Source: Naegleria gruberi (Eukaryota). Taken from it: a stretch of 64,000 nt of DNA. This document shows, one piece after another, positions 12,117-63,358 of the stretch. Each line of letters begins with the position of its first letter. Within the stretch, counting starts at the first letter, position 1. A program made the position numbers and the translations under genes. Location of the stretch: assembly GCA_000004985.1 (NCBI GenBank), contig GG738919.1; one strand, written 5' to 3'. Under the pieces are notes generated by a model. It did not search any database and had not been told where the DNA came from. It was given only the letters and a program-made list of their open reading frames with translations.

Positions 12117-12147
12117 TATGTAAATAAAACTTCAGTTAAAACAATAA

Positions 12148-33200: not shown

Positions 33201-35281
33201 CTTGGAGATACAGGAACACCCCTTGGAGAAACAATTATCTGGGAGCCACCTCCAACAGTGAGAGAAGTTCCAAATCCAATACTACTGCCCATAGTTGATG
33301 GATTAGTGTTATGTGTTGATGGAGAAGTTGACTTGCCCTTTAAATCTGAAACACTACCAGAAGAAGATGTTTTAGGAACACCTCCACCATGAATGAGTCC
33401 TGTTGGTGTGTCATTGACATTTGTACTTGATGTTGATCTTTTTGGAACGCCTCCAATTCCACTAGAAATGATAAAACTTCCGTCCAAAGGACCACTACCG
33501 GCAATGTTAGTGTTGGAAGGAGAACGTCTTGGCACTCCACCAATTCCACCCGAAATAATTCCTCCACTACTGTTGAGTGTAGTGTTGCTACCTGTTGATG
33601 TGGTGCTAGTATTACTACTGTTGGTGTTAGATGATGTTTCCAATCCAGGAGTTGGCTCAATGGTCAAGCTTGGTAATTCAGGAGGATGAGCCATGTCAGA
33701 AAGGGAAGAACCAACAGATCTCGATCTAGGAACATTTTCAGTGGCTGGCTTTGTGTTAAATGTTGGAGTAAAGGTAGTGAATTGAATTCTATTAGCAGTT
33801 GACCATTCACTGTTTTTAGGAGTGAGTGAGGACATTTCACTTTGACTAGGTGATTTTGGAATAAGGGATTGTGATCTCTGCTTTTCAGAAGATGATTCCA
33901 TTGTTGCTTTCAAATCTGATGATGAACTATTGAGAGAATTAGCGGTTGATGTCTTTTTACCATGTTTGTGGGAACATACAGTCAAATAGGTATGACCACG
34001 ACCCAAAACTCTACAATATGATTCACAAGTGAATTTGGCACCATTTTGACCTGGGAAGAATCTCAATAGACGTTCTTGATTTTGATGAATATATGGAATT
34101 TCAATTGCATTATTCTTGAGTAATTTAGAATCAGTCACAAATACAGTATTGATCATGAAGGCATGTTCAGTATCATGGAGTAGTAAATTCTCCTTCTCCT
34201 TTACAGAAAGAGTTTCAAAATTAATATTTTTCATTTTAGGATCAACTGATTTTTTGGCAATCCAGAATGAATTCTTATCGTGACCATATTCTTTTCTACA
34301 TATGGACAAACAGGCAGGACATTTCTTTGCACAAAAATGTTTACGTGGTGCTGTTTTAGTGTCTTCATCATTGTAACAAAGACATTTACCAGAGTGGCTA
34401 AATTTGAATGGTTCCAACATTTTGGAACAGTTATGCTTCAAGCCAACATCTGTATATTTGGCCTCTGCTTTAATTTCACAAAATCCACGATGAGAACAAA
34501 ATTGTTGACAAGGATGTGAATTGGAACACATGTGAAAATCGAGACCTCCATTCTCTGCTTCAATAAAGTCCTTATATTCCTGTGAAGAGTGATCAAATGC
34601 ACAATAGCATACACAATTTGGAATTTGACACTTGTGTTTACAAATTCCAGGTTTCAAATTCTTCAAATTTGGATTAACAACAATAGGTTCTGCAGTAATT
34701 GTGATTGGTGGAGATTTGTTCAATCTTTCCACTGATGAAGAGCTAGTATTTTGTTGTGGTAATTTGATAGCTGGTGGAATAACCTTGACAGTTTCCATTG
34801 GTTTCTTATTTTCCACAATATTTTCCAAACTCTTACTACTTGTTAATGAATTATTGTTAGCATTCACTGTTGTGTTTTGATTTGTTGAAGTTGAAGGCAA
34901 GACAGGTGGTAAAATCTCTGCAACTGAATTCAAGGCAAATAATTCTTCCTTTCCAGGAGTTTTTGTTGGAGTACTGTATGGATTTACAACATTACCACTT
35001 GGCATTAAATGTTTGTTTTGAATTGGAGCTTGAGTTGAATGTCCAATGTTAACAATTGGAATTTCTACAACGGGATTAGTAGTAAAGTTGGCAATATTGA
35101 CCACTTGTGGAGGAGGAACTGTGGCTGAGGAAGGTTGCTGTGTCTTGGTAGCTGTTGGTTGAACAATCATTGGAGGAACAATAACTGGGACTGTATTTGT
35201 CTTGGATACAGGCTGATTGGACATCACATTGTTAACACTTGGTCTATTCATATTCACTTGTTGTTGTTGCTGTTGTTGCAT
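30221..35281 (-). CDS. multidomain Rho guanine-nucleotide exchange factor (DH domain, probable PH-like region), with Cys/His-rich and vWA-like regions
   Basis: 1686-aa single ORF. The DH domain near the C-terminus includes ERAYVTSMAKIIELYYYPLLKYL...LIKPIQRIPRYILLLKGLLKHT, with the hallmark QRIPRY.LLL. Upstream there is a poly-Q/N-rich N-terminus. A Cys/His-rich segment follows (CKHKCQIPNCVCYCAFDH...CSHRGFCE...). A vWA-like segment is also present (HHYIFVDVSRNMSS...DRMTVGIFTKKS). Confidence 0.7.
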   Translation of the reverse strand: MQQQQQQQVNMNRPSVNNVMSNQPVSKTNTVPVIVPPMIVQPTATKTQQPSSATVPPPQVVNIANFTTNPVVEIPIVNIGHSTQAPIQNKHLMPSGNVVNPYSTPTKTPGKEELFALNSVAEILPPVLPSTSTNQNTTVNANNNSLTSSKSLENIVENKKPMETVKVIPPAIKLPQQNTSSSSVERLNKSPPITITAEPIVVNPNLKNLKPGICKHKCQIPNCVCYCAFDHSSQEYKDFIEAENGGLDFHMCSNSHPCQQFCSHRGFCEIKAEAKYTDVGLKHNCSKMLEPFKFSHSGKCLCYNDEDTKTAPRKHFCAKKCPACLSICRKEYGHDKNSFWIAKKSVDPKMKNINFETLSVKEKENLLLHDTEHAFMINTVFVTDSKLLKNNAIEIPYIHQNQERLLRFFPGQNGAKFTCESYCRVLGRGHTYLTVCSHKHGKKTSTANSLNSSSSDLKATMESSSEKQRSQSLIPKSPSQSEMSSLTPKNSEWSTANRIQFTTFTPTFNTKPATENVPRSRSVGSSLSDMAHPPELPSLTIEPTPGLETSSNTNSSNTSTTSTGSNTTLNSSGGIISGGIGGVPRRSPSNTNIAGSGPLDGSFIISSGIGGVPKRSTSSTNVNDTPTGLIHGGGVPKTSSSGSVSDLKGKSTSPSTHNTNPSTMGSSIGFGTSLTVGGGSQIIVSPRGVPVSPRYGREDSMIITDNFDDSLSDNGEEDCPYNGELSLMATGRKHSTMKCEPMDELKHEKFWSLCGFVDPCKKACMSNEEMRQFNLCRVQKLDQNSTSNTPLEYCKRHVSHQVLDCSALDYLEEVSLLAERFPAKENGFIFSPSGHLFKATPNTGIHHYIFVDVSRNMSSQDMIPSLPVFKPAGKSLKQSEKGEDYSQFTAYDNRLGSAIEIVLRYLHILFKLRPADRMTVGIFTKKSVEIIIDNEDLEYYYSVIDLITNKIKKPDNDGGYEEVFTLLVDLLAKHDPKQSKDPINRNMRPKIYLVTANQIESKFSAPNFGKTASSSTGTPVWHSLGKLESLSLQRKKKKEQTKLDDIVEWYESNGISANSTGSASEPEPYISIIKMGSEGNESTLNQILLKCKGLSTIVDSTFVSVNVNNKLTEEEKEIIKKKSGKEPALMQRLVICHMLQDLLLTHLEHNKIRLNENMRISGASSASSGKCGLLIKSVIDQMQHADSDSDSDYDSDEELSNIGFGSFMIGKKSHKGSPVDVLEDLETVTTETSPNIESNKTSDNSATETKTSTEKQEDVKQLENEKDILERENLAKEILDTERAYVTSMAKIIELYYYPLLKYLPNLISEDDKSKIFGGLLGIYKLHKILVTDLEERVNEWHKDQKIADIFIKLHQTFKLYTTFSTKYEMAIETYSKHKDNPRFRNYLYIRRKDPFSKGEQLQGFLIKPIQRIPRYILLLKGLLKHTKNPEHPDFGNLVNAISITEEVATFLNNKIRERQYFYRMKSVADRLSGLTDLIQPQRRYICEFDKLRSTYDTHVNEECVVFLFNDLFIHAVRESENTQEEDGKLSRVRRKLSVKANSQPNITSTVNVPTPSVSASTSELGGTPSGAAAMKIATAEGANGIDKSDNVDVMGIMEEKKKDRYEARFVLSLGDLTVHPMDFGSNNSKFQISAIARKFTVEYDVMNRPNEKVRIITKLNDAITDFVKRKQSFQTISQQNSSPQH

Positions 35282-35999
35282 TGGTTGCTTGTGTTGTTTT
35301 TGGAGGAATTACTTGTGCAAAGTTAGCATCATCCCATGAAGCATCAAACGAATCATCAAACTTGTTGGTACCAGGTTGGGTATTGTTTGTAATAATATTT
35401 GCTCCAATATTTACATTATTTGCAAGATTATTGTTACTTCCACTGTTAGAGATGGATCTTGCTCTAGGATTGAAACCACCACCAACGCTCAGACTTCCAC
35501 TAGAATTTGTTGATGATAGAGTTGGAGTTGGAGTAGTGGAATTGCTGTGGAGAGATGTTGTTGATGAAGAGGAGGGAATTAATAAATTATTTGAATGACT
35601 ATTATTTAGCTTTAAATTGTTATTATTATGAATTGGAGCAAAACCACCACCAATAGTTGTTGTATTAAAATTTAAATTTAAATTATTATTATTAATATTA
35701 TTATTAAAATTATTAAAATTATTTGATGGTGCGGTAAATGTAGAAGGAGTTGATGAAGTTGAAGATGTTATTTGTTGTTGTGATGATGGTTGTACAACGG
35801 GATCTCCCGATAGGAAAAAATCTAACAAATCGCCATGACTCATCGATGACATATTTGTTGTTGTAGTTTGTTGTTTCTGTTGTTGTGGTTGTTGAGGATT
35901 TCTCATCGTGGTGTTATTGCTGCTATTACTCTTGTTCATTGTACCCGTGGATGGGTTTGTTCTTTGATTGTTGTTGGATTGTGCATTTGCTCCTCTCAT
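35244..35999 (-). CDS. Asn/Gln/Ser/Thr-rich low-complexity ORF; probably the 5' coding part of the RhoGEF gene
   Basis: 251-aa ORF on the same strand. It overlaps the start of ORF 30221..35281 by 38 nt in another frame. A GTAATT...AACAG segment (35270..35312, 43 nt) would splice the two in frame. See findings. Confidence 0.4.
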   Translation of the reverse strand: MRGANAQSNNNQRTNPSTGTMNKSNSSNNTTMRNPQQPQQQKQQTTTTNMSSMSHGDLLDFFLSGDPVVQPSSQQQITSSTSSTPSTFTAPSNNFNNFNNNINNNNLNLNFNTTTIGGGFAPIHNNNNLKLNNSHSNNLLIPSSSSTTSLHSNSTTPTPTLSSTNSSGSLSVGGGFNPRARSISNSGSNNNLANNVNIGANIITNNTQPGTNKFDDSFDASWDDANFAQVIPPKTTQATNATTATTTSEYE

Positions 36000-36270
36000 A
36001 TTGTTGTTGCTTTTTGTCTTTTGTTTGAGAATAAGAGAGCAAATGACAATGTCGTGGTTGAGTAGTTGACGATGTTGTGTAGTTTATTATGGAGTAATGA
36101 TTTGTGCGATTTTCTTTCTAATTGGCTTTGTTTGCATGTCCTTTTTCTTATCGCTATTGTGCTTGATTGAAAGTTGATGGGAAATTGCTGTTCGTATTTA
36201 ACGATTCGCAAATGGAGTAGACGAATTGAAGTTGTAAAGTCTCAGTGAATCATAAGGGCATGGGATGAAA

Positions 36271-37926: not shown

Positions 37927-38668
37927 ATTCTCTCAATAAAGTTGTTGTTTATGGCAGTATTTTTTAAAATCTGAAGGTAGATATTATTCCGCCAAATTAC
38001 TGTAAATAACAAACAAGTCTATGGAGAGTGGTTAAGGTAAAAAAAACTTTGTGATGTTTGGTGATGGAGATTTTTAGTTAATGTGTATCTGTGGACCATT
38101 TTTCATGTCAATGCTCTATTCGTTTGTAACACATCTGTTTGACCAAGGTTTTAGTTGGTTCCAAATACACATCCTTCCTAAGATTTCTTTCTGCTAATCC
38201 ATTCTAACATCATATTTGAAGACTTCAAATAAGAGAGCATGCAAATTTATTAAAATATATTTCATAAACAAGAACATAAAAGTGGTACTTAATCAAACCT
38301 TCAAACTCTGTGTGTTTGCAACAATAAATGGCCGATTTAAGTCGTGTTATGAAGAAGGTGCGACAACCAGTGGTGTTTTGTAAAAAAGTCAGAGCCGGAC
38401 CTACCTTAAATCATTAGAGCCATTTGAATGCCTTTTTGAAAAAAACAGCACAAACATTATTGATATCTTTCCACTAGATTATACATTCTGTTGTTTTTCT
38501 TCTAGTGCAAAACAACAATATTGGATCACACTTATGTGGGAAACCAATTATTTTTGAACATGATACCCAACAATAACCACTTTCTAAAGAACGTCCTCAA
38601 TCTCCTTAATACAAGATTCTTCCCATCAACAAGTTCACCATCAATTATCTATTGCAAGCATTCTAAGC

Positions 38669-40564
38669 ATGAGCAATTTTACCAACCACTCACAAAATAA
38701 TAACTCGTCCGCTTCCTGTACTGCTGTTGGAGGTTCGAACAATAACAACAACAATAGCTCTCAATTTAACAACAACAATAATACAACCGTGAGTGTGATT
38801 GAGGAGAATATTAGTCAATCTACTAGTAATAATCACCCTTCTCAAACAAAAGGACAGCCTCCCCCACGTATGTTGGCTCATTCTAACAGCAATACACAAC
38901 GACATTCCGTCGATTCCTATACACCTCAAGTTATTAGTAATAACATGTCTGATATTTATCAAAGGAGAGTTGGCTCATCAATAACAGGATCAGATTCAAG
39001 CCTCTCCTCAACATCTACATCATCCACTTCTATCATCAAATCACTACAACAATCCTTTACAACCTATTCAATAGTTCTTCAAGATCGCGAAAAGCTTAAA
39101 GGATGGAAGAATGTACTTTTATTTGCCTTTCTTAATATTTATGTATTGTGGGCATCCGTGGCGATACCTAGTCAAGGAAATTATAATTATGGGGATATTG
39201 GATCATGGATTTGGAAGGCAATTAATTTTCCAGTGACCCTTTCACTTGATTTGATCCCTTACGAGGTAGGGATAGCTCTCTCTTCAATATGTATTGCCTT
39301 TTCAATTCTGGGAATTTTAATGTTCCTTATTTCTTCTAGGGCAGTGTACAATTCGAGCAAGTACACAAACATTCTCAAAAAACTGTTTAGAATCTATGGA
39401 ATTATATTTCAGTTCATTGTCTATACAATGATCTTTATAATGAGTGGATTTTTCAATTGTGATGAATCAAAGACTGTAGTTTTGGAGGGTTATGATGAGC
39501 CACAAACAGTGCTGAGGAGATATCCTACCACTCCATGTTCTTCAACAGCTAATATTATTTTGGTGATCATTAATGCTTTGGGAATTTTAGTGCTCTTCAT
39601 TGATGCAGGTATTGTTGGATTGACTGTGACGAATGCTCATCCAAAGAGCTCAACACTCTTCATTACAGATACTTCATACTTTTCTGTAATTTTCAATTGG
39701 GTCTCAATGTTTCAAATCTTGGTTGTATATGTAATACCTCAACAATATTTTTATATTGTTGCCGTTCTGCACATTATTTCATCCATTATTACCATTCCAT
39801 TTCTATTTTATCTTCTTCCATTCTTTAGAAGAATGGAGAATTCTATATATTGTGGAATAATTTGCTCCAAGATTGGCATTAGTATTGGATGCATTGTTTC
39901 CTACTTTGTAAATTCCCAATATTTAACAGATCTAGGTCTTGGTATGTCTGGAATAATCGTGGGTCTTGGTCTGGTGGGTTGTATTATTGGCTTGACCGTT
40001 ATGGAAATTTATACAAGAGTATCATATAATGAAGTGAGAAAGGAGGTTGTGAGAATTCTTTCAGAGTGCGCCTCACAAGCTATTGAACTGTCCAATGATG
40101 AATCTGAATATGTTCACAAACAACATGGAGAAAACTTTTTCAATTTGAAATCGTTATTTGAGAGAGAATCTGTTTCATTGTTGAGATCATTTGAGGAAAG
40201 AAAGAAACTGAGAAACCTTAATTTATTCCTAAAATTCTCCATGAGATCTGGAAATAAGCCCGCCAAGGAGACTTTCTTAATGTCTGACTTGGATTTAGTC
40301 GTTGCATTTATTAGAGGTGTTGGGAATCAAAAGAGTTTCAGTAGTCCAATTCTATTGGTAAATTGTAGTTTGGTGGCATGCCACTTTGTGGTTGGAGAGA
40401 CAAATAATTTGACTCTTGCCTTCTCCTTATTGAAAAAAGCACAAAAACAGAGACCTTCTTTATTAGAAAACTTTATAATCGTAGAGAGAATGAAAGAAAT
40501 TGAATCATCAACTGAAAATTTAGGTAGAGCCAAAAGTAGTAAGTTTCTTTATTCAGATCTGTAA
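38669..40564 (+). CDS. polytopic membrane domain protein; probable N-terminal part of the PAS-adenylate/guanylate cyclase gene
   Basis: 631 aa. The N-terminus has an Asn-rich tract. At least 8 hydrophobic TM helices follow, then a cytosolic tail. The ORF ends 18 nt before the next same-strand ORF. Confidence 0.55.
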   Translation: MSNFTNHSQNNNSSASCTAVGGSNNNNNNSSQFNNNNNTTVSVIEENISQSTSNNHPSQTKGQPPPRMLAHSNSNTQRHSVDSYTPQVISNNMSDIYQRRVGSSITGSDSSLSSTSTSSTSIIKSLQQSFTTYSIVLQDREKLKGWKNVLLFAFLNIYVLWASVAIPSQGNYNYGDIGSWIWKAINFPVTLSLDLIPYEVGIALSSICIAFSILGILMFLISSRAVYNSSKYTNILKKLFRIYGIIFQFIVYTMIFIMSGFFNCDESKTVVLEGYDEPQTVLRRYPTTPCSSTANIILVIINALGILVLFIDAGIVGLTVTNAHPKSSTLFITDTSYFSVIFNWVSMFQILVVYVIPQQYFYIVAVLHIISSIITIPFLFYLLPFFRRMENSIYCGIICSKIGISIGCIVSYFVNSQYLTDLGLGMSGIIVGLGLVGCIIGLTVMEIYTRVSYNEVRKEVVRILSECASQAIELSNDESEYVHKQHGENFFNLKSLFERESVSLLRSFEERKKLRNLNLFLKFSMRSGNKPAKETFLMSDLDLVVAFIRGVGNQKSFSSPILLVNCSLVACHFVVGETNNLTLAFSLLKKAQKQRPSLLENFIIVERMKEIESSTENLGRAKSSKFLYSDL

Positions 40565-40581
40565 AACAAATCTTTTAAGTT

Positions 40582-42177
40582 ATGGAAATTAAACATATTC
40601 TACAAAGGTTGGAGAAGAACAAGGCAGAGATTTTGGCACTCCACAGACAGTTTTGGAAAGAACTAATGTCTGACATGGTCAATATCAACAAACTCATTTT
40701 GGTCACAGAGCGAATCACAAAGTTAACAACTGGGTGCCATACTATTCTCGAAAATTTAGCTCATGAATTCAGCAATGACAAGACGGTACTGAGATTCTAT
40801 GCTGGTTTTGTTGAAGACGTTTTATTCAATGCTGAGTTCGCTCAAGAAATGTACACTGACGCTTCAGTTCTCGAAGAGGAAGATAGTAAGAGAGTTGAGA
40901 TGGTCATTACAAAGAGTAATAGAAGAATTGTTCCTTTATCAGAGTCTGTTGATAATGGCTCTCTAAGTTATGAGAAATCCTTTAATGAGAAGCTTGAAAA
41001 GGCAAAAGATGCATTCCAAGAAAACAGAAAACGGTCTCTAGAAATTTTGAGTGTGAACATGAATGATGATAAGGAATCTGACTTGGGAACTGATGCATTT
41101 GAGAATCCACTTGTGAAGAAAGAGTCCATGTTCAAGCTAGCACTGAACACGCCAACAGTTGATTTAGCACAAAAGATTCTTTTTTATTGTTTGATTGGCC
41201 TAATGTTTAGTTTGTTAATTGCAGGATTTGTAATGTCTGTTCAATTTTCCATTTCTGCATTACAAGAAGTTCCAAGAGTCAAGACCACTTGTAAAACATT
41301 GATATCTCCCATCTCTACAATATCTGATTTAAGAATGAAACAATTATTGATAACTGCTTTCAATGATTCAAGAATCAATCCACCAACAAGCACCCTTAAA
41401 CAACAAAAGATTAACACGATTCAAGACTTTGAGAAATTATTTACAGAAAGAATTTTATCACATAACAAGGCCCTTGATGATCTTTCACATTTGGCTAATT
41501 ATGGTGAACTTTCAGACGAAATGTTGACGGATTATAAACAGAATAGATTTATCCTTAAACTTCCAGAAATTCCACATGGTAGCCCATTAGAAAGGTATGA
41601 TGGTTATTTTGAAACCAACACATCAGTGACTGAAATTTCACAAGCAATTAGGAGATATGCCGACACATTTTTGTACACCAATTTAACAGCTATTGAGACA
41701 ACTACTGATTATTCCTTCATGTTTTTCTGGTATAACAAGTACATTCTTCAAGATTCATTGGAGGGATTTTGCTATGAGTTTATCCAAAGAAGTCAAGAAC
41801 AAATCAGCAAAATTCAATTCTCGTTCATGATTTTTTTGATAGTTAGCTCTGCAACAATAAGTGTAATTTCTACACTAGTTATTTCCTTCCTCGTTTACAA
41901 AACATACTTCATTGATGGAAGTATTAAGCTATTCTCCAAAACATTAGCAAAGGATGCAATCGGAAAAGTTTACCACAGATTGGGTAAGATTGTTAATGAA
42001 AGAGCATCTACTCATGTATCCAAGCATTCGCTCTTCAGACCTAGAAATTTGATTGTTCTTTTTGGACTGGCTTTAACCTTAATACTAATTGCTTCAAACG
42101 GATTATTCTTTGTTCAAGTGATTTTGAACTGTACTGATGGAACTGATGTTATGGATGATGTAAAGTATGTATTTTGA
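40582..42177 (+). CDS. middle segment of the cyclase gene (helical region plus 2-3 TM helices)
   Basis: 531-aa ORF. It has TM-like segments (ILFYCLIGLMFSLLIAGFVMSV; MIFLIVSSATISVISTLVISFLVY; LIVLFGLALTLILIASNGLFFVQVIL). It overlaps the next ORF by 11 nt in a different frame. Confidence 0.5.
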   Translation: MEIKHILQRLEKNKAEILALHRQFWKELMSDMVNINKLILVTERITKLTTGCHTILENLAHEFSNDKTVLRFYAGFVEDVLFNAEFAQEMYTDASVLEEEDSKRVEMVITKSNRRIVPLSESVDNGSLSYEKSFNEKLEKAKDAFQENRKRSLEILSVNMNDDKESDLGTDAFENPLVKKESMFKLALNTPTVDLAQKILFYCLIGLMFSLLIAGFVMSVQFSISALQEVPRVKTTCKTLISPISTISDLRMKQLLITAFNDSRINPPTSTLKQQKINTIQDFEKLFTERILSHNKALDDLSHLANYGELSDEMLTDYKQNRFILKLPEIPHGSPLERYDGYFETNTSVTEISQAIRRYADTFLYTNLTAIETTTDYSFMFFWYNKYILQDSLEGFCYEFIQRSQEQISKIQFSFMIFLIVSSATISVISTLVISFLVYKTYFIDGSIKLFSKTLAKDAIGKVYHRLGKIVNERASTHVSKHSLFRPRNLIVLFGLALTLILIASNGLFFVQVILNCTDGTDVMDDVKYVF

Positions 42178-44131
42178 ACTAATAATGCTTAATTTCAATA
42201 GAAATACTGTGTTGACAATGCACGATATTCAGAATGTTCAGCTGTTCATTGGTGAAATTTATATATTTGGAATTTATCCTAATAATTCACATGTAAATCC
42301 GAAGGAATTAATGGAATCCGAAGAGTTACTAGAGTTACACGAAAATTTGATTAATGTTTCTTCTGAATTGTTGGATTTGTGGAATCTTCTTATATTTGGT
42401 GACTACACCAAAGGGCAAACACCTATCCTATTAAGATATGGAAAAGTTGATGACATGATTCAAGGACACGGTTGCTCGCAATTGACCAATTCAACTCTAA
42501 AAACATGTTACGGATTAGATGAATTGGTTAAAGCCTTTGTGCTTAGTTCACATGAGATCAACGAAAGGGTCAATAATAAGGGACCTAATAACTATATTCA
42601 AACATTTGATGATTTGATAGATTTTTATTTCAGGACCAATATTCTCACTTCTAACTTGTTTACATTCTTGGACATTTTTGTTTCCAGCTCATCAGCTAAT
42701 CTTGTGATTTCTATTCTTGTGTTTGTTGCTGCAAGTATTATGATGATGGTGTTGACATTTTTAATACACAACTCAATTGAAAAGACTGAACAGGAAGTCA
42801 ATCAAGTGAGATCATTACTGAATTATGTTCCTGTTGATAATTTGGATGCTAAGGAAGAGCTCCGAACCTATGTTTTGCACAATTCCTTACCAAGCTTGAT
42901 TCATAGAAATCATACGGATTCAAATGATGACAATGTTAGAAATATGTTAAATGCAGCAGTCGATGGAGCTGTAATGTGTAATGATAAGGGAGATATTGAA
43001 ATATTCAACCCAGCTGCTTCTAGAATTCATGGAAGACAAGCAGACGAAGTATTAGGAAGACCTTTCTGGATCCTATTCGACACCAAATATCATGATGAAA
43101 TCAAATCTGTAATGTCACTTATGATTAAAGGCAACCATTTGAATCATGCAGGAGAGACGAAAGAAGTTGAAGGCCTCAGAAAGAACGGCACCAAATTCCC
43201 AGCCATCATTACAATTTCAGGAACAACTTATGATTCCAAGGTGATTTACATTTGCTTTATCAAAGATATCAGCTCTGAAAAGAAGCAAAATGCTCTCCTT
43301 GCAGAAGAGAAGAAGAATAGTGAAAATCTCTTGAAGAATATTCTTCCAAGTGCTGTAGCTCAAAAGCTCAAAGCCGGTGAAACATTCATAGCTGAAAAAT
43401 TCTCTGATGTAACATGCTTCTTCTCTGATATGGTTGGTTTTACCTCTATCAGTAGTAAGATGGGTGCCAATGAATTAGTGGGAATGTTGAACGCAATTGT
43501 GAACGGATTTGATGCCCTCACAGAAAAGTATGATTTGGAAAAGATTAAAACAATTGGTGATGCTTATTTTGCTACAGGTGGTTTGTGGCAAACAAGTGAT
43601 CACCCTGAGAGAGTTCTCATGTTTGCATTGGATACATTCTATGTGATTAGAACGTACAATACAAGTAACATTGCTCAACAATTGAGAAAGATTGACAATT
43701 TAGATGCTCCAGATATTCACAAGGTTATTCCTCAAATAGACATTAGAATTGGTATCAATACTGGTGAGTGTGTTGCAGGTGTTATTGGAACTAAAAAGTT
43801 TGCCTATGATTTATGGGGAGACACCATTAACGTGGCCTCTAGAATGGAATCTACAAGTAAACCAGGCCAAGTGCAAATTTCCAGAAGTACCTTTGAAAGA
43901 GTTCACGATTTACCAAAACTGAAATTTGAAGAAAGATTTGTTGAAGTTAAAGGAAAAGGTAAAATGCAAAGTTATCTTGTGGATCCATCCTGCCATGATT
44001 GTGCAAAACTTAATGAAGAAACCATTAAGGTTTTGATTGATGAAGAAAAGTCCCTACGAAATGAACTCAATCCAAGAGAATCTTTTGATTTAACAGGTGG
44101 AAATGTTGCAGAACCACCAACAACCTTGTAA
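42167..44131 (+). CDS. PAS domain + class III adenylate/guanylate cyclase catalytic domain
   Basis: TM helix, then a PAS-like segment (NAAVDGAVMCNDKGDIEIFNPAASRIHGRQADEVLGRPFWILFD...). The cyclase homology domain follows: FSDMVGFTSISS, KIKTIGDAYFATGG and GINTGECVAGVIGTKKFAYDLWGDTINVASRMES. Nucleotide specificity cannot be called by eye. Confidence 0.85.
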   Translation: MYFELIMLNFNRNTVLTMHDIQNVQLFIGEIYIFGIYPNNSHVNPKELMESEELLELHENLINVSSELLDLWNLLIFGDYTKGQTPILLRYGKVDDMIQGHGCSQLTNSTLKTCYGLDELVKAFVLSSHEINERVNNKGPNNYIQTFDDLIDFYFRTNILTSNLFTFLDIFVSSSSANLVISILVFVAASIMMMVLTFLIHNSIEKTEQEVNQVRSLLNYVPVDNLDAKEELRTYVLHNSLPSLIHRNHTDSNDDNVRNMLNAAVDGAVMCNDKGDIEIFNPAASRIHGRQADEVLGRPFWILFDTKYHDEIKSVMSLMIKGNHLNHAGETKEVEGLRKNGTKFPAIITISGTTYDSKVIYICFIKDISSEKKQNALLAEEKKNSENLLKNILPSAVAQKLKAGETFIAEKFSDVTCFFSDMVGFTSISSKMGANELVGMLNAIVNGFDALTEKYDLEKIKTIGDAYFATGGLWQTSDHPERVLMFALDTFYVIRTYNTSNIAQQLRKIDNLDAPDIHKVIPQIDIRIGINTGECVAGVIGTKKFAYDLWGDTINVASRMESTSKPGQVQISRSTFERVHDLPKLKFEERFVEVKGKGKMQSYLVDPSCHDCAKLNEETIKVLIDEEKSLRNELNPRESFDLTGGNVAEPPTTL

Positions 44132-44336
44132 ATATACTCTTAATTTTGGATTTGTCAATAGGAATTCGTTATATTCTAGTTAGTTGGAACGCTATCACCA
44201 TGTTAAATAACAAAGAAGTAGTATTGGCAGCTGTCAAATAAACTGCCTTTACCTTTCATTTTATTGATGAATCATTGCTAATTCAGAATTTGCATCACTC
44301 AAAGGTAACTGAAATCAATTACAAACAAAGTACAAC

Positions 44337-45464: not shown

Positions 45465-47483
45465 GTTGTTTTTTTTTTGATTGTAGCGTTTGACAGTTCG
45501 CTGTCGTTATTCTCTCAAAAGGGATAATTCGTAGCGTACAAATAACTTGACCCTTCGTGCTTCCCTCCATTACAACATGCCAAATCTCATTTTCACAAAA
45601 CCTTTCCTTTTTCAATAAAGTAAAAGGCCTTGGCCAATCTTTCTGTTTACAACATCAAGGTTCACAAATTTACAGTAAAATTTATTGAGTTTTGAATTAA
45701 ATAAAAACAACAGTAGATTATGTAGATTATGATTGTATTGGTGGTTGAAGGAAAATGAAAATTGTAATCCAAAGGATTTTTTGGTTCATGAAAATCATTG
45801 TTGTGCATAGTCCTTAACAAGATATTACACATCATTTGGTGATGGTGAAAGGGTTATTCAAAGAATCTATTGTATTTTAGACAATATTCAAAGGATTGCA
45901 ATGTGGTGGTGTTAAAACAATAATTGAAGGAGAACCAAATAATAGTAATGCGCTTTTGTTTGAATAGATGTGGTTTTATAGAGTAAAAAGACTACAGCAC
46001 CACAGGTTCCCAAGTTGTCTCCAACCTCAGTACTGATGTGGCTCGACGATGCTTAACTTCTCAAATCGGACGGGATGAGGTGCATTCATCGTGATATGGC
46101 CGTAGCCATTCATTAATTGAAAATTTGGGAAATAAACAAAGTTATAAGGGATTCTGGGGAAGGAAATTAGAACGAAAAGGAATGTTGGAAGGCTTGTTGA
46201 ATATCTTGGCCAACTTTTGAAGTAAAAGTACAAGATGAATGTTATTGTTAGATTACATTATAGAGATGTATTTATTCATGTATTGATGAAGAATGATAAA
46301 GTAGATGATGAATAATTAATGTTAGGAAGCATGTAATTCTAACTTTTCAAACTCTGGACAAAAGTTGAAAAACATTGCAAGAACATCCTTACTGATGTGG
46401 TACAATAATAAATCTTTGCCCTCCTCTTGAAATTGAACAGGTTTTCCAAGGTGTTTTAGCTTGTGGAAAATAATTACCTATTCTTCTCCAACTCTTCATA
46501 CACTTGATGGAAAGTTTTGAAACTTTCTGGAGTGATGCTAGTGAACATTTAGAGCATACCTATGATGTTTTTGTTGCTATAGATGGTGTTCTTGATGATG
46601 AAAATATTAAAATTAATAAATTGATGAAAATATTCTGGCAGTAACAGAATCGCATCTATTTGATTGTTATATTCATGTTGATTACTAATAGATGATGTGA
46701 GTTTTAATTGTCCACTTTAACAAAATTTTCCATCAATTTAATCATTACCTTTTAAAATTTGTATTTCATTGTAAAATCCAATAAAATCTATTCATATACA
46801 CTCTATATGATCCAATCATGTTGTGTTGAAAATGGTTTTCCCAGTCATGAAGAATTGACTTTGAAAATCATCAATGATGTAAATTGTTGATGAAATATTT
46901 TCTTTAATTTTTTCATCATCAAAACCCTTTTCAATCAAAAAACTCGTCAATAATTTTTTCATCACAATCGCAACAAAAGAATTGTCTTGATAGAAATTAT
47001 TTATTATTTCTATGGATACTCAATAAGAAGTTAAATTTGCATTGTTTGGATAATTATTCTTCACATTCATAGATACAAGATGAGACTTTCCACAATGATA
47101 CTATCGATAATTAACAACATTTTGATATCTGTTGATGAATTTAAATTATGTTGCAACATGATGAAGAAAATGAGAAATTATAATTTTGATGAAAATCTTG
47201 TTGCAAGAAAATCCTTGGATACGCTTGAATATCATCTATTAATCCTATTCTATCATAGAAGATGTTATCATGCCATCAAACAATTATTACAATTTTTAAT
47301 AATTAAAAATTGCTTTCAATCTCCTCAATTCCATTTACAACACAATTATCCTTCATCACCATCTCCTCTCCACCGTCCACTCCCTCCACTCACAAAATTA
47401 TTCTTCATAACTCCATCAATTGCTTCCACAATTCATCTCATCCTATTTTCTCTAAAATTTTAATTTAAAAAAATCAAAGAAAA

Positions 47484-50400
47484 ATGTATCAAAAACTTCC
47501 ACCATGGACAGGCAAAGTAATCTTACGAACCATGATACAAGAAGATCCAACTCAACAGGAGAGGATGGGTGTTGTGGGACCCAATTCAAATCCCTTCTCG
47601 ATGGGCATGATGATGGATGATTTTCTTCCCGAGGTTGTGGACAAGGTTGATTTATCTTTTTATAATTATTCAGCTGATGAACGACAACAAGGGAATAATC
47701 AACAAGTAACCTCCACAGCTGCCGAGTTGGAAGAGAGAAAATTATTGGAAAATGGAATTAAATTATTACGAATGATTAAAAGTAGTTTTCAAGATATTCC
47801 AAATCAAATATTGGAAGCAGAACAAGAAATTGAATCTTTCATTCAGAATGTATATACAAAGAATGGATTTGATAGGAATGATGAATGGATTTCAAAGGCT
47901 TTTATGAGTGATGTATTGATTGATAAATTCTTTGATTGGATGATGGAACTTTTAGTTGATACGACCACTTCGAAACTAATGTACTTGTTGCATGTGATTA
48001 CTGTGAATAGGACTTTTAAAGAGAATGTGAAGAGAAGACACTTGGTTCGTTTGTGTAATTATGTGCTACCTTATGAAAGGTTTGAAATACCTTTCAATTT
48101 GTACTTTGGACCATTCTTGAATGAGTTGTTGCACTTATCTTGGAATGTATTGGAAACTGTTTTAATAGATGAATTGAAAACCGCTAAAAACCCTCTCCCA
48201 CCAAAGGAAAGAAACAAGAGAGGAGCTCAAGTATTATACGAGTCAAGATGCATTGATTGTTTGACATTAATTGCAACTTCCAATGAAATCTATCGACCAA
48301 AATTATTGGAAATATTTGAGGAAATTCTCAGCTCATGTGAAGATCCTTATATCACCTCTATAATTGTTGCTGATATGAAGGCCTTGAAACTAATTAATAA
48401 GAAATCATTTAGACTTATTGAGAGAGCATACATGAGTAAGGATGTGTTTGAAGATATTACTGGAACTTTTTTCGAATTTTCTCAGCAAGTTGATATGGTC
48501 GATAAAGTGAGTTTGACTGCTTCATCACTACTAAATAAGAAATTATCAGTAGAGGAATCTAAGGCAAAGAAGAGGGTCAGAAAAATTAGGGATATTGCCA
48601 TTGCATCAATAGTAGAGTCAGGATTCAAATTGGCAACCTCTACACAATTTTCGGACATGAAAGGAGAATTTGATATTGACCCTAATATTTATTCAGTCGA
48701 AAAAATGTTTGAACATTTAAAGGAATTGAACTTATTGCCAATATCATCTATTGAGAGGTTAAGACCAGAAACAGAGGCTGACAAGGCAGATTTTACAAAG
48801 GTTTCTCTAATGTTATTGAGAGTAAGTTTTATTTAGTACATTCCCATTTATTTGAATGCAAACTCTGTAAAGTTTGAGTATTATTTGAGAAAAAAAGTTG
48901 TCAAGAAGGGAAATCAATTGTTAAGAGTGGATGACATTAGAGAATCGACAATTAATATCATTGATTCGTGCATGATGAGAGGGTTGACCTATTTCACACA
49001 ACATGATTATCAACCACTACTCGATTATGTATTCAAAGAGAGTAGTCACAATAGATACAGATTAGATGATGTTTTATACTTTTTATCCATGGCAATTAAT
49101 AGTAATTTCATGATCATCGAACGTAATTTCAGTAATTCCTTCTCTTTGAAGCCATTATACACCTACTTGATAGATATTGGAATGGCAGAGAGATTGGAAC
49201 AAATAATTTTGGAAAATATGAAGATTTCTGAAAGTGAAGATGAATATTCCAAATCAATCAAAATATCCACCATTCGTGAGGCTGTTGGATTAATAGGTGA
49301 ATTAGTCAATAGTAAGTAATATTAATTATTTCAAAAACTAAAATATATCCTACTATTATCTCAGACTCTTCACATGATGATATAGGAAGAGCTAGTTATC
49401 TGTTAAATAGAACAAATGTGTTGGATATTATAGTAGCTGTTTGGGTTGAATTTTCAAAGGTCCCATCTATTATGGAGGTTTGTGCTGTTGCAATGAATGG
49501 AGCTTTAAGGATGGAAAAATTGGTCCTTTCATTTATATTCGAAAAGCATTTTCTAGCCTGTATGGTTCATTCATTCGAGTTTTTAAAGCAATATCAATTG
49601 GAAAATAGCGAAGAATCTCTAGTAATACTCGATAGCATGTTCCATTTGATTCAGAAAGCTGGTTTGCCTGGTATTGTAAAGTCTTCTAAAGGTGTCTTCC
49701 CAAAAACACAAAGAAAAATAATTCAAGCCATGGAACAAGCTGGTATAATCAAGAGAGTGTTTGAATTCTTATTGGAAAGAGATTTTTCCAAATTAGCCAC
49801 TGGTACAGAACCAAAAGATATTAGGGCATCAGGATGGTCTGATTCACTGGCAACCTTTTTGGCTTATCTTTCCAGAAATCCACCAACCAGAGAACATTAC
49901 TATGATAATGATTTCAAGGTGTTGAGATTTTTAGTCAAGGAAGTTCTCTTTACAATTCATGATCAATTAGCCAAATATTCTGTGAATAATTTACCAGAAG
50001 CTCGCAGTTCATTATGTGCATCCTTTATTAATTATCTCTCTGTTGTTAATCATATTCTGTGGGATATTAAGGCTTGTAAATTCCTATTCGAAGATGTTAA
50101 CAATAGATCTTCCAAATCTGGATTGGCATTGGAAAACATGTGCTTCTTTTGGCTTTCTAAAATGTTGGAACATGTAAAGAGAATCAAAAGACTCAATCAA
50201 GTTCAAACCTTAGTTTTTTCAAGGACACTATTTTGCACTTCATGCTTGATGGGAGATGAATCTTTTTGCAATACCTTATTATCAGATGATCAATTCCTAC
50301 CTAAAATTATGGAAGTACTGAAATTTTTAACCAACAATCAACTCATGATTCCTGATATTAATTTATCCTCAGTCAAAATTATAACAGTTGCATTGAGACA

Positions 50401-50743
50401 TGAAAGCTCAAAAGGAAAGATCAATGTTGATACACTTTTGGGATTTATTGTGAATCAGATGGATGATATGGCACCTGTGGAAACATTATTTTATGATCTC
50501 ATAGGAAGTCAATTTGGAGCAGAGGCAGAGAAATTAATCAATACAAAATATACAAGTCTCAAAAAGTCATTGAATAACACTAAGAAACAAGTGGATAAAT
50601 GCGCAACTTGTAAAAATCTTTGTGGTGAGAAGGGAGAGCCACTTAAAAGTTGCTCCAGATGTGGAAAAGTCAAGTATTGTTGTAGAGATTGCCAAGTTAA
50701 AGATTGGCAAAACCACAAACCGGAATGCACTAAAAAGGCTTAG
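47484..50743 (+). CDS. large MYND zinc-finger protein encoded by three consecutive ORF segments (47484..48836, 48837/48852..49319, 49365/49418..50743)
   Basis: C-terminal zf-MYND (CATCKNLCGEKGEPLKSCSRCGKVKYCCRDCQVKDWQNHKPEC). Segments 1 and 2 are in the same frame, separated by a single TAG at 48834..48836. Segments 2 and 3 are joined in frame by donor A|GTAAGT at 49312 and acceptor TCTCAG| at 49364, a 53-nt intron (phase 1). Confidence 0.55.
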
Positions 50744-50993
50744 GATGCCTTTATTCTTGATGAGTTTCAGCTTGTGATGAAGATATTCACCATTTATCAG
50801 CAATTTCATCATGAAATACATAGATAATGTTTAATAGTAGCAATTTCAAATGAACGTTGTTCTTGTGGAGAGTGGAATTGTTTGTTAAAAACCTTAAAAA
50901 AATACCTCAACAAGTATTAAGGCTCTTCTGTTGAAAAAATTTGACAAAATCGGTTTGAAGAAGAGTTTCATTTATCGGAAAGTTTGTTAAGGG

Positions 50994-52325: not shown

Positions 52326-52330
52326 GAAAA

Positions 52331-53482
52331 CTAGAGTTTGGAAACTCTTTGAGAATTAGGATATTTAAGCAGAGTGGTATCTTTCCTGACAATGGTTCCA
52401 TTAATAATAAATTCATAAACCTGCTCCCATAAAAATGTAGAATCTCTTACGTATTTTTTGAATAGGCCTACATGACCGACTGAAATACTCTTTCTTGGAT
52501 TTGTTTCTGTACTTTTTGTCACTGGTAAAGGTGTTTTGAATAACTCGTAGTGATATTCCTTACACTTTCCATAAAATTTCTCATTGAACTTTTCAATAGA
52601 ATATTCATTACCATAAATGTCATCATCAAATAACCAAGTCAGTATTTTAACATGTGAAATAGCAACGGGGACAACAGGGTCATTGAATCCAATTGGTTTG
52701 TTTGGGTCTTGTACGCAGTGAGAAAGAAAATCATTTCCACAATGAACCATATACTCCTTTTGATGTTGAAAATAGTTCCACTGTTTTGCTACTTCAGTTG
52801 GCAGATCTTCCATTATTTTCCAAAATGTTCCTGAAGGGAAATAATTATACAAATACGAAAGAATTGGAATACTATAGAAGAATAATCTAACATTAATGTA
52901 ATTCCACAATGATTCCCAATTTCTGAATGGACTACTATAACCAAAGTAAGCATGATAGCTTGAGGCCAAGAATGCTCGATTGACAAGCTTTCCCAAATGT
53001 GGAGGGCAAGTCATAAGCAAGTAGGCTCCAATAGAGTGACCTACGACTGTCAATTCCATCTCACACGTTGATGCGTGTTGTGAGTGATATTCCTTAACAT
53101 GTTCCAACATTCCCCAGAAATCTTTAGCAAAATCCAAATATGAAACATCCTTCTGAATTGGTTTTTCAGTATTCCTAGATTTTCCCATTCCTCTATAATC
53201 ATACGTAAATACAATCACATTCTCCGATTGACCAGCAAGAAATTTAGCAAAGGACAAGTAAAAAGTCTGATGAATACCTGTAGCACAATTAATAATTACA
53301 TAATTAATTTTTCTTTTCATTCCCAAAGACAAGTTTTTTGAATCTTTCTCTTGTTGTTCATCTTTCTTATCTAATTTATTTAGTGGTGATGATGATGGCT
53401 TTGATGAAGAAGAAGAAAACAAATGGCCAACCAACGGATAATGATCAATTGCTGATTTAAATTCGAATACAATCGGGTGCAT
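52331..53482 (-). CDS. alpha/beta-hydrolase fold protein
   Basis: 383 aa with nucleophile elbow VVGHSIGAYLL (GxSxG). The surrounding strand/helix pattern is typical of ABHD-type hydrolases. Its stop is 5 nt from the stop of the convergent gene 50994..52325. Confidence 0.7.
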   Translation of the reverse strand: MHPIVFEFKSAIDHYPLVGHLFSSSSSKPSSSPLNKLDKKDEQQEKDSKNLSLGMKRKINYVIINCATGIHQTFYLSFAKFLAGQSENVIVFTYDYRGMGKSRNTEKPIQKDVSYLDFAKDFWGMLEHVKEYHSQHASTCEMELTVVGHSIGAYLLMTCPPHLGKLVNRAFLASSYHAYFGYSSPFRNWESLWNYINVRLFFYSIPILSYLYNYFPSGTFWKIMEDLPTEVAKQWNYFQHQKEYMVHCGNDFLSHCVQDPNKPIGFNDPVVPVAISHVKILTWLFDDDIYGNEYSIEKFNEKFYGKCKEYHYELFKTPLPVTKSTETNPRKSISVGHVGLFKKYVRDSTFLWEQVYEFIINGTIVRKDTTLLKYPNSQRVSKL

Positions 53483-53741
53483 TTTTTTCCTTGTTATGAC
53501 GAAAATAAATTATCGGAATTTTTCCTTGTTTGATCGATTTGATGAAAATTATTATTTGATGGTGTGAATATTTTCCCTCCAAAGAAAACCATTTTAATAA
53601 AATGTTATTTTGTTTGTTAATTTTAAATAAAAAATCAAAACCCACCCAATATTTCGCGCTAAACAAATATTTAGCACATCTCCCGTCATGTTTCTCAAGA
53701 TTCATCATCATTAAAAAAATTATCATCACCATCACAACAAC

Positions 53742-54820
53742 ATGAAGGTATTGCTCCTATCGCTTGTTGTATTGTGTGTATTATGTAGCAGTTATAACTT
53801 GATGATCGGTGGTGCTTTGGGAGAAACAAATGCGCTCTCGTATCCACTTCCAAAACTCTCGATCGTTCCTGGTACTTTGACTGTGAGTGGGTTATCATCG
53901 GGAGCCTATATGGCTACACAATTTCATGTTGCTTTCAGTAAGACTGTTAGAGGAGCTGGAGTATTTGCTGGAGGACCATATTATTGTGCTCAGAATGATT
54001 TTGCAAAGGCTAATGCTGGATGTATGAAGGTGGCAAGTATGATTGATTTGGATTCTATTCAAGCCAATGTTAAAGAGTTTGAAAGACAAGGGTTAATTGA
54101 TCCAATTGAAAATTTGAAAGGTCAATCCGTTTACTTGTTTAGTGGACTTAAGGATTATGTTGTATTTCAGGCTGTAATGAACAAATTGAAAGATCAATAT
54201 TCGAAATATTTCGGAATTACTAGAATAGTTGCTCATTTTGGTTCAATTGCATCTCATGCTATGATTACCAATAATTATGGTGGAAAATGTGATTTCTTTG
54301 GTGTAGGTTTTATTATTGATTCAATTGTGAGATGTTAATAATTTTTTTACTGAGCTAGTCACCTTTCATTAATAATTGTGATTATGATGCAGCATCAGAG
54401 GTATTCAGCACACTTTTAAAGGAATATAATGGAACTTCAATTCCACATGTTGAGGAGAACTTTTACATGTTTCCACAAAAGGATAAATATTTAGCTAGTT
54501 CATTCGATGAATATGGATACATTTACATTCCAAAAGCCTGCAGAACTACTCAATGTAGAATTCACGTCGTTTTCCATGGTTGCCTACAAGGAAGAAGTTC
54601 TATTGGTGATGTTTATGCTAAAAATGCTGGCTATTTACAACATGCAGAGCTCAATAATTTAATCATTCTCTTCCCACAAGTAACTACTCTTGCCAAAGTC
54701 AACCCTAACGGATGTATGGATTGGTGGGGTTATACCAATGAAAAGTATGCAACCAAAGAAGGAGAACAATTGGTAGCTGTTAGGAACATGTTATTGGATT
54801 TGGGAGTTACTGATTTTTAA
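53742..54820 (+). CDS. secreted esterase of the PHB-depolymerase family; two ORFs probably joined by a 32-nt intron: join(53742..54326, 54359..54820)
   Basis: N-terminal signal peptide (MKVLLLSLVVLCVLCSS). Lipase box GLSSGAYMATQ in ORF 1. HGC oxyanion-type motif CRIHVVFHGCLQGRSS and a WWGY motif in ORF 2. The ORF-2 frame is open upstream of its first ATG and reads plausibly (…SPFINNCDYDAASEVFSTLLKEYNGTSIPHVEENFYMFPQ…). Donor ATT|GTGAGA at 54327 and acceptor GCTAG| at 54358 join the ORFs in phase 0. Confidence 0.55.
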
Positions 54821-63340: not shown

Positions 63341-63358
63341 GTTGGGTTTGGGTTTGGG
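63341..63358 (+). repeat. interstitial telomere-like repeat (GGGTTT x3) in the subtelomeric region
   Basis: GTTGGGTTTGGGTTTGGGAG, 250 nt proximal to the main array. Another partial copy GGGTTGGGTTTGG lies at about 63020..63033. Confidence 0.5.

Follow-up and report, generated by a model that had tools for sequence, protein, structure and literature searches.

Short GT-AG introns of ordinary type probably join split open reading frames near a chromosome end of the Naegleria gruberi genome

Introduction

Very short introns characterize several groups of unicellular eukaryotes, measuring ~20-34 nt in Paramecium, 15-16 nt in Stentor and 18-21 nt in the nucleomorph of Bigelowiella natans. In these ciliates and nucleomorphs intron lengths cluster in a very narrow peak and splice signals are often weak; the introns considered here, although also including very short examples, span 37 nt to at least 126 nt within a single stretch and carry a strong donor consensus. 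The spliceosome of Naegleria is canonical, and the N. gruberi proteome is widely used to infer which genes the last eukaryotic common ancestor possessed. Species from the ciliate and nucleomorph group are mentioned in PMC3488318, and short introns have already been described for heteroloboseans (PMC11589745, PMC8296547); in Acrasis kona the predicted intron size range is 9-95 bp (PMC11589745). Sparse, very short introns are common to this heterolobosean and the N. gruberi sequence studied here, a likeness drawn from description, the Acrasis figures being annotation summaries.

Here we analyze a window of 64,000 nucleotides in which an earlier note proposed that six short GT...AG segments, labeled A to F below, join neighboring ORFs and represent a minimal-intron class of 32-53 nt. 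We consider it probable (roughly 0.8) that segments B, C, D and F, together with a corrected version of E, are ordinary U2-type GT-AG introns, and that A is not a credible intron, a frameshift being the favored explanation there. In length the five would lie towards the lower limit of the Naegleria range, and their GTANGT consensus would pair with U1 and U6 snRNA in the manner of GT-AG introns generally, as expected from established knowledge of splicing.

Results

The window belongs to a subtelomeric region in the nuclear genome of N. gruberi NEG-M (contig GG738919.1). Exact protein comparison equated ORFs within it with XP_002670141.1, XP_002670142.1, XP_002670143.1 and XP_002670095.1, and a telomere, (TTGGGT)64, closes it at the chromosome end, in agreement with the repeat TTTGGG reported for N. 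gruberi telomeres (PMC3622300). The TTGGGT telomere had pointed to Paramecium, but a ciliate origin was rejected because the long ORFs of the window use the standard genetic code. Features discussed below are collected in Table 1.

Table 1. Putative and annotated introns, flanking exons and ORFs of the window.
Feature	Position	Strand	Length (nt)	Phase	Ends	GC	Remarks
Candidate short intron	5744..5785	-	42		GTAAGT...CAATTTAG	0.19	
F-box gene intron	22478..22585	-	108				Annotated; spliced model identical to XP_002670138.1
API5-family gene intron	27115..27240	-	126				Annotated; spliced model identical to XP_002670139.1
RhoGEF ORF	30221..35281	-					Exactly XP_002670141.1
N/Q-rich upstream ORF	35244..35999	-					Predicted RhoGEF N-terminus; motifs DLLDFF, GFNPRA, FDDSFDxxW
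Segment A	35270..35312	-	43		GTAATT...AACAG	0.40	Between N/Q-rich and RhoGEF ORFs
Cyclase exon	38669..40538	+					Membrane region, upstream of B
Putative intron B	40539..40579	+	41	1	GTAAGT...TTTTAAG	0.24	
Cyclase exon	40580..42164	+					TPR_TmcB/middle region, between B and C
Putative intron C	42165..42201	+	37	2	GTATGT...CAATAG	0.22	CTAAT branch-like motif
PAS-cyclase exon	42202..44131	+					Downstream of C
MYND-gene exon	47484..48821	+					Upstream of F
Putative intron F	48822..48872	+	51	0	GTAAGT...GTAAAG		Multiple of 3
MYND-gene exon	48873..49311	+					Between F and D
Putative intron D	49312..49364	+	53	1	GTAAGT...TCTCAG	0.19	
MYND-gene exon	49365..50743	+					Downstream of D
Esterase exon	53742..54302	+					
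Intron E (E56), corrected	54303..54358	+	56	0	GTAGGT...CTGAGCTAG		
Esterase exon	54359..54820	+					

Direct inspection bore out the coordinates, lengths and GT and AG ends given earlier for all six segments, and excision of each fuses the flanking ORFs without a stop; corrected intron E likewise begins with GT and ends with AG. The strong donor hexamers claimed for the set proved real at B, C, D and F, all placed within the top 0.3% of the window's 5916 GT sites, but not at A, which falls at the 83rd percentile, or at the 32-nt version of E. Donor scores are 8.7-11.3 bits for B, C, D, F and corrected E, 1.7 bits for the 32-nt version of E, and -0.3 bits for A. Our reference set comprised 12 introns, each recovered exactly from annotated Naegleria proteins, and the annotated F-box and API5-family introns served as positive controls. 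Every reference intron has a GTANGT donor, with G at +5 (12/12), and a GC content of 23-34%. B, C, D, F and corrected E conform to this lineage consensus; A (GTAATT) and the 32-nt version of E (GTGAGA) do not. Annotated Naegleria introns share with B, C, D and F the GTANGT donor, the AG acceptor, a GC content of 19-34% and the occurrence of a stop if retained; they, like B and C, restore upon excision a frame collinear with homologues.

These donors are sparse and distinctively placed. Summed over both strands, GTAAGT occurs 12 and GTATGT 17 times in the window, 3-4-fold below the ~47 and ~51 predicted by base composition. Wherever a sense-strand GTAAGT ends a long open frame a stop follows within 8 codons, and the window scan found none within a continuing long frame. 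Of the 56 open frames that reach 100 codons or more, eight carry GTANGT no further than 33 nt from the stop, against ~0.6 expected. Read-through reaches a stop 2-8 codons past the donor in B, C, D and F (2-11 with corrected E), and these five segments are AT/T-rich, with GC of 0.19-0.27 between flanks of ~0.33. The pattern at B, C, D and F is far beyond chance. Candidate branch-point motifs occur in C (CTAAT or TTAAT), D (CTAAA) and E (TACTGAG); B and F show none that is clear.

It is very improbable that nothing is spliced and that single-base frameshifts from sequencing or assembly, or real pseudogene lesions, account for the ORF breaks. Both relevant frames are closed over 17 nt at B, 3 nt at F and 23 nt at E, so that one indel could not fuse the ORFs at these sites; the stretch open in both frames is 1 nt at D, 11 nt at C and 62 nt at A, and none exists at B, F or E. 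The 11-nt zone at C would permit a single indel, and A, coding-like and CAA-rich, accommodates one readily; however, GTANGT stands exactly at the upstream frame end at all five of the other sites, their composition is that of known introns, and E is both annotated and conserved in position. The frameshift alternative allowed for in the earlier note is thus excluded at B, F and E and nearly so at D and C, but at A a 1-nt frameshift appears at least as likely as an intron.

Joined through B and C, the cyclase gene would encode a 1794-aa multi-pass membrane/TPR_TmcB/PAS/adenylate-guanylate cyclase, aligned by one HSP over residues 104-1779 with a cyclase of N. lovaniensis (P0128, 1799 aa) having the same order of TM, TPR_TmcB, PAS and cyclase domains. 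A homologue search with the joined protein, its candidate list crowded by N-rich low-complexity words, returned a single match. The alignment shows only a 3-aa gap at the B junction and none across C (TDVMDDV/KNTVLT versus SMVLTNV/RQTILT). The N. lovaniensis protein, the sole homologue for B and C, is only 33% identical and its gene has introns at other positions, so the match speaks for collinearity and not for conservation of the two introns. Longer acceptors for either intron were rejected, as they would remove aligned residues, 78 of them in the case of the next in-frame acceptor for C; retention of C would bring a stop 4 codons past its donor. Donor strength, closed frames and collinearity at B, and the gapless alignment at C, support B and C as genuine GT-AG introns of very small size, joining the membrane domain to the middle segment and the latter to the PAS-cyclase, as had been proposed. 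The full cyclase with both introns spliced had no exact match among deposited proteins, nor did versions with B alone spliced or beginning at ATG 40582 with C spliced.

A reading of neighboring ORFs as independent genes, which public annotation adopts for the first cyclase ORF and the RhoGEF, is scarcely credible. XP_002670091.1 does correspond to the unspliced first cyclase ORF alone (38669..40564, 631 aa), as XP_002670141.1 does to the RhoGEF ORF read from ATG 35281. Against this, the N. lovaniensis homologue extends as a single chain over the three cyclase ORFs, bearing out the continuity sought in related species; RhoGEF proteins of relatives contain motifs of the upstream ORF; the ORFs overlap or are parted by gaps of 0-17 nt, leaving no room for promoters or terminators; and the v1 models of N. 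gruberi are known to require correction by RNA-seq (bioRxiv 10.64898/2026.08.18.745565).

In the MYND gene, intron F had been described as optional. Its flanking ORFs share a frame and are parted only by a stop, the in-frame TAG at 48834, which splicing of F is required to remove. The frame would likewise be preserved by an acceptor at 48878, giving 57 nt, or at 48836, giving 15 nt, and F could instead measure 57 nt. For D, proposed as the join between MYND segments 2 and 3, the assignment appears sound: the upstream frame ends 2 codons past the GTAAGT donor, the acceptor is the first AG downstream, and the low GC and near absence of doubly open sequence fit an intron. Splicing of both would yield a product of 1051 aa with a MYND finger at the C-terminus. 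A homologue search apparently blind to the window's own proteins returned nothing for this product, and a JGI metagenome scan found no close relatives; the exact acceptors of D and F thus depend on splice signals, and acceptor-side scores are low (0.1 and 0.8 bits for D and F, respectively). Splice signals and frame closure nevertheless support both as real, very short GT-AG introns. The model with a 51-nt F and a 53-nt D had no exact match among deposited proteins, nor did variants with F of 57 nt, D of 74 nt or F alone spliced. The ORF at 47080..47463 was considered as a 5' exon of this gene and rejected, a donor being absent.

For the esterase gene, the segment proposed earlier (54327..54358) has the correct acceptor but the wrong donor: by all indications the true intron is 56 nt and not 32 nt long. 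Spliced at the upstream donor, the gene encodes 340 aa identical to XP_002670096.1, annotated as a PHB-depolymerase-like esterase, whereas the 32-nt version had no exact match in the protein collection and keeps eight residues, VGFIIDSI, that are absent from all homologues compared. Ten homologues back the 56-nt junction. Comparison with relatives upholds the presence of an intron and contradicts the 32-nt boundary: the position is conserved in three further Naegleria lineages, with introns of 142 nt in N. lovaniensis and 124 nt in N. fowleri at the same FG/SPF site, and with a close metagenomic relative that retains GTAGGT as donor along with the acceptor, lacks the GTGAGA donor and has TACTGAC in place of TACTGAG.

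Segment A presents a different case. The N/Q-rich ORF, missing from XP_002670141.1, evidently encodes the true N-terminus of the RhoGEF, as had been suggested, the two ORFs forming one gene: a relative (P0136) carries the same N-terminal motifs in one continuous ORF leading into the Cys-rich region, and in another (P0133) just an LLDFFF motif occurs, close to the N-terminus and upstream of the Cys-rich region. A JGI metagenome scan for close relatives of this N-terminus found none. Since relatives encode both parts in one protein, the ORFs must be joined somehow, and A might be a genuine 43-nt intron with a non-consensus donor; its excision restores the frame, and introns are presumably far commoner than assembly frameshifts in the N. 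gruberi genome. We nevertheless regard this as unlikely. Its donor lacks the G at +5; its GC content of 0.40 and T content of 0.12 set it apart from the other nine introns and candidates of the window (0.19-0.28 and at least 0.37, respectively) and from every other intron examined; and many rival GT..AG pairs restore the frame equally well, the same donor yielding lengths that include 25, 100 and 112 nt, and another donor lengths of 67-106 nt. The annotated RhoGEF start ATG falls within the segment, and the junction lies in a low-complexity insertion that cannot be aligned with relatives. As an intron, A appears indistinguishable from chance and is probably not real. Removal of one A from the run at 35297..35301 opens a single frame of 1925 aa, and the 1-nt offset would accordingly represent a frameshift in this CAA/A-rich tract, arising by assembly error or as a strain-specific change; an intron with different boundaries is possible. 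In the RhoGEF gene of a relative, a 46-nt GTAAGT intron (L005:1323..1368) is validated by the uninterrupted LSICRKEYGHDK of N. gruberi.

One further short intron is likely at 5744..5785, outside the range of the earlier note. There, 264 open codons precede the donor, read-through meets a stop 2 codons beyond it, and both frames are closed over 27 nt; the model with this segment removed had no exact match among annotated proteins. B, C and this 42-nt candidate lie 10-15 nt below the shortest of the 12 reference introns.

The likely introns of the window thus measure 37, 41, 42, 51, 53, 56, 108 and 126 nt. Those with lengths divisible by 3 (42, 51, 108 and 126 nt) all hold in-frame stops, so that their retention would yield premature termination. 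The gap between 56 and 108 nt might suggest a discrete, length-selected minimal class of 37-56 nt apart from one of ~100-130 nt, and annotation divides in a similar way: the three longest (56, 108 and 126 nt) are all annotated, the 41-nt B was definitely missed, and none of the models carrying the other four introns of at most 53 nt matched a deposited protein in exact look-up. Such a class is doubtful. The sample is only some eight introns; the orthologous esterase intron spans 56, 70, 124 and 142 nt across four Naegleria lineages; and introns of the annotated N. lovaniensis cyclase (C9374_010749) occupy 52-72 nt. These spreads indicate that length is a continuous, labile trait, and with the intron boundaries corrected, the window lends no support to the distinct class of 32-53 nt proposed earlier.

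Discussion

The main practical outcome is correction of gene models, the underlying biology being routine. In RefSeq a fragment of 631 aa represents, at least in part, the 1794-aa cyclase; the model for the RhoGEF is without ~230 N-terminal aa that are conserved in relatives, and the MYND gene model needs two short introns. The relevant deposited exon structures are presumably those of UniProt D2W0U3, D2W0U4 and D2W0U6. The failure of models with introns of 37-53 nt to match deposited proteins means that these introns have no endorsement by an independent annotator. It also raises the tentative possibility that the 2010 N. gruberi models systematically miss introns shorter than ~55 nt. Were this true genome-wide, intron lengths would have a mode of ~40-55 nt and a floor near 37 nt, the reference proteome would contain many large signaling genes in split or truncated form, and statistics of domain architecture and gene count would be affected, including the much-cited cyclase expansion. 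Public N. gruberi RNA-seq includes PRJEB23822 (PMC6142364) and the data of Kennard et al. 2025, cited in the bioRxiv article noted above.

Splice signals and frame closure at the proposed junctions

The earlier note had proposed that six ultra-short introns of 32-53 nt (A-F; see table) fuse neighbouring ORFs. All six segments occur at the positions and lengths tabulated, begin with GT and end with AG, and with each one excised the ORFs on its two sides form a single stop-free frame. Four of them (B, C, D and F) are predicted to be ordinary short spliceosomal introns, well supported by donor rank and frame closure and, for B and C, by homology; E, with its donor corrected, is a real intron that is already annotated, and A is probably not an intron.

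Donors were scored with a matrix built from 12 reference Naegleria introns, obtained by threading annotated proteins onto genomic loci. The cyclase of N. lovaniensis supplied seven of them (52-72 nt), the esterase orthologues of N. lovaniensis and N. fowleri one each (142 and 124 nt, respectively), and the window three, each of which, when spliced out, gives an exact RefSeq protein. All 12 start with GTANGT and have GC contents of 23-34%. Among the 5916 GT sites in the window, the donors of B, C, D and F fall within the highest-scoring 0.3%, that of A at the 83rd percentile and that of the 32-nt version of E (E32) at the 90th.

Over the whole window, on both strands, GTAAGT (12 observed, ~47 expected from base composition) and GTATGT (17, ~51 expected) are 3-4-fold under-represented, and the non-consensus hexamers GTAATT (74, ~90 expected) and GTGAGA (28, ~24 expected) are at expectation; such a depletion would be expected if cryptic 5' splice sites were selected against in coding sequence. 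Wherever a sense-strand GTAAGT terminates a long open frame, a stop follows within 8 codons, and none in the window lies inside a long frame that continues. Of the 56 open frames with 100 codons or more, 8 have GTANGT within 33 nt of the stop (~0.6 expected), namely those of B, C, F, D, corrected E, two other minus-strand introns and the candidate at 12156.

The alternative of frameshifts was addressed by searching each junction for sequence that is open in the upstream and the downstream frame alike. B, F and E have no such sequence, both frames being closed over 17, 3 and 23 nt respectively, so that one indel cannot fuse the ORFs; the zone open in both spans 1 nt at D, 11 nt at C and 62 nt at A. 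Composition also sets A apart: its GC is 0.40 and its T 0.12, resembling the adjoining CAA-rich coding sequence, against GC of 0.19-0.28 and T of at least 0.37 in the nine further introns and candidates of the window that this test covered.

Introns, genes and other features (window positions unless an L-handle names a relative's locus)
Feature	Position	Strand	Details
A, RhoGEF junction	35270..35312	-	43 nt
B, cyclase	40539..40579	+	41 nt
C, cyclase	42165..42201	+	37 nt
D, MYND gene	49312..49364		53 nt
E32, esterase	54327..54358	+	32 nt
Corrected E, esterase	54303..54358	+	56 nt, GTAGGT; reference intron, spliced product identical to XP_002670096.1
F, MYND gene	48822..48872		51 nt
Reference intron			108 nt; spliced product identical to XP_002670138.1
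Reference intron			126 nt; spliced product identical to XP_002670139.1
Likely intron, F-box-like gene	5744..5785	-	42 nt, GTAAGT...CAATTTAG, 19% GC; 27 nt closed in both frames
Candidate short intron	12104..12156	-	GTAGGT just before stop of 349-aa ORF 12148..13197
Esterase intron, N. lovaniensis	L003:6559..6700		142 nt
Esterase intron, N. fowleri	L004:6520..6643		124 nt
RhoGEF orthologue intron, relative	L005:1323..1368		46 nt, GTAAGT...GAATAG, at LSICR|KEYGHDK; JGI metagenome 3300002220 contig
RhoGEF ORF, XP_002670141.1	30221..35281	-	exact identity
Cyclase gene	38669..44131	+	1794 aa
Alpha/beta-hydrolase gene	52331..53482	-	
Esterase gene	53742..54820	+	
Mitochondrial-carrier gene	54847..55677	-	
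Assembly gap (N)	60574..62857		2.3 kb, just inside telomere repeats
Short interstitial TTGGGT copies	about 63020..63040 and 63340..63360		few hundred bases inside terminal array
TTGGGT (=TTTGGG) tandem array	63610..63997		64.5 copies, window end; G-rich strand running 3'-ward

Cyclase and MYND gene models

Excision of B and C yields a three-exon product that aligns as one HSP (residues 104-1779) with P0128, a 1799-aa cyclase of N. lovaniensis (C9374_010749), the alignment being gapless at junction C and interrupted by 3 aa at junction B; common to both proteins is the domain order TM region, TPR_TmcB, PAS, cyclase. Longer acceptors for B or C were rejected, as they would remove residues aligned to P0128. 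The introns of P0128 sit at positions other than B and C, and this protein therefore backs collinearity, not intron conservation. XP_002670091.1, a 631-aa "predicted protein", is exactly the first cyclase ORF, with the donor of B read through to a stop; the public annotation thus splits the gene, and the record is evidently the membrane-region ORF only of a TmcB-like PAS adenylate/guanylate cyclase.

In the MYND gene, F had been termed optional and proves to be required, since the two ORFs on either side of it share a frame that a TAG at 48834 interrupts. The product with F and D spliced is 1051 aa long and carries a zf-MYND domain at its C-terminal end. Neither a homologue search nor a JGI metagenome scan for close relatives detected a homologue of it, so that support for F and D comes from splice signals, from frame closure and from the succession of three long ORFs. 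The acceptor of D is the first AG downstream of its donor. At F, acceptors for 15, 51 and 57 nt all keep the frame; a length of 51 nt is most likely, and 57 nt is possible.

The esterase intron

The acceptor proposed for the esterase intron was correct and the donor was 24 nt off. The 56-nt splice reproduces a deposited protein; an exact look-up found the 32-nt model absent from the protein collection, and the eight residues that this model keeps, VGFIIDSI, are missing from 10 homologues. N. lovaniensis and N. fowleri have an intron at the same FG|SPF phase-0 site, as has a close metagenomic relative (L002; protein 87% identical), in which it retains the GTAGGT donor, the TACTGA(C/G) motif and the acceptor, without the GTGAGA donor of E32. 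One and the same intron thus measures 56 nt in N. gruberi, 70 nt in the metagenomic relative, 142 nt in N. lovaniensis and 124 nt in N. fowleri. The exons of N. gruberi and its close relative can be aligned with no indels, and 14 nt of gaps set their introns apart.

Beyond Naegleria and Willaertia, the proteins closest to this PHB-depolymerase-like esterase are for the most part extracellular PHA depolymerases of bacteria, with scattered eukaryotic matches too (frogs, Monosiga), a patchy distribution that could reflect horizontal transfer.

The RhoGEF junction

At A, the fusion of the upstream ORF with the RhoGEF was upheld and the 43-nt intron said to join them was not. Relatives were recovered by a full HMMER search in which the N-terminal region of the RhoGEF served as query. 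P0136, an uninterrupted ORF of 441 aa from a JGI metagenome contig, has the upstream-ORF motifs MSHGDLLDFFLS, GFNPRA and FEDSFDSDW and continues without a break into the Cys-rich part of the RhoGEF ORF; P0133 has the LLDFFF motif only, near its N-terminus and upstream of its Cys-rich region. The upstream ORF is therefore the real RhoGEF N-terminus, and XP_002670141.1 is truncated. The junction itself falls within an unalignable low-complexity insertion. Removing one A from the run 35297..35301 creates a single open frame of 1925 aa, which favours a frameshift, of assembly or strain origin (probability about 0.5-0.55). Many GT..AG pairs restore the frame here, including a 100-nt pair; the 43-nt segment is an unlikely intron, some other pair is slightly less likely still, and true gene fission takes the remainder.

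Elsewhere in this gene, the orthologue of a Naegleria relative (L005) contains what is, from its sequence, a clean, homology-validated predicted intron of less than 50 nt, at a site where the N. gruberi RhoGEF is uninterrupted, pointing to intron presence/absence variation within the genus.

Intron lengths and annotation

Likely introns of the window measure 37, 41, 42, 51, 53, 56, 108 and 126 nt, and those of the N. lovaniensis cyclase cover the 52-72-nt range. For annotated introns, published mean lengths are 203 bp (N. gruberi) and 126-144 bp (N. fowleri), reads having been mapped with a minimum intron length of 30 bp (PMC8296547), and the range predicted for Acrasis kona is 9-95 bp (PMC11589745). 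Taken together, these lengths indicate that short introns are the known regime in the group and that length is labile. The separate minimal-intron class envisaged earlier is not demonstrated, given window introns of 37-126 nt and an esterase intron of 56-142 nt across four lineages; what is new consists only of further instances of a known short-intron kind and of gene-model corrections.

All three window introns of at least 56 nt are annotated, whereas B was definitely missed and none of the spliced models that carry an intron of 53 nt or less was matched by exact look-up among deposited proteins, a pattern that is suggestive. The N. gruberi v1 models need RNA-seq correction for missing or extraneous introns (bioRxiv 10.64898/2026.08.18.745565). 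The likely intron in the F-box-like gene lies outside the range covered by the earlier note, and its spliced model is not among deposited proteins by exact look-up. The candidate at 12104..12156 may be another unrecognised short intron: a 53-nt or 142-nt GT..AG segment would carry its ORF into a downstream open frame.

Annotated ORFs and chromosome end

Four window ORFs are identical by exact look-up to N. gruberi NEG-M RefSeq proteins, the RhoGEF ORF and those of XP_002670142.1, XP_002670143.1 and XP_002670095.1. No deposited protein is identical to the plain ORF of either the mitochondrial-carrier or the alpha/beta-hydrolase gene. The public models of both genes therefore depart from these ORFs, perhaps by having additional exons or alternative starts; in the carrier, ~30 N-terminal residues seem to be missing from the ORF.

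The window is AT-rich (GC ~34%). Its terminal array matches TTTGGG, the candidate N. gruberi telomere repeat (Fulneckova et al. 2013; PMC3622300), which makes the window one end of a chromosome, in a heterolobosean amoeba that uses the standard genetic code and has a canonical spliceosome.
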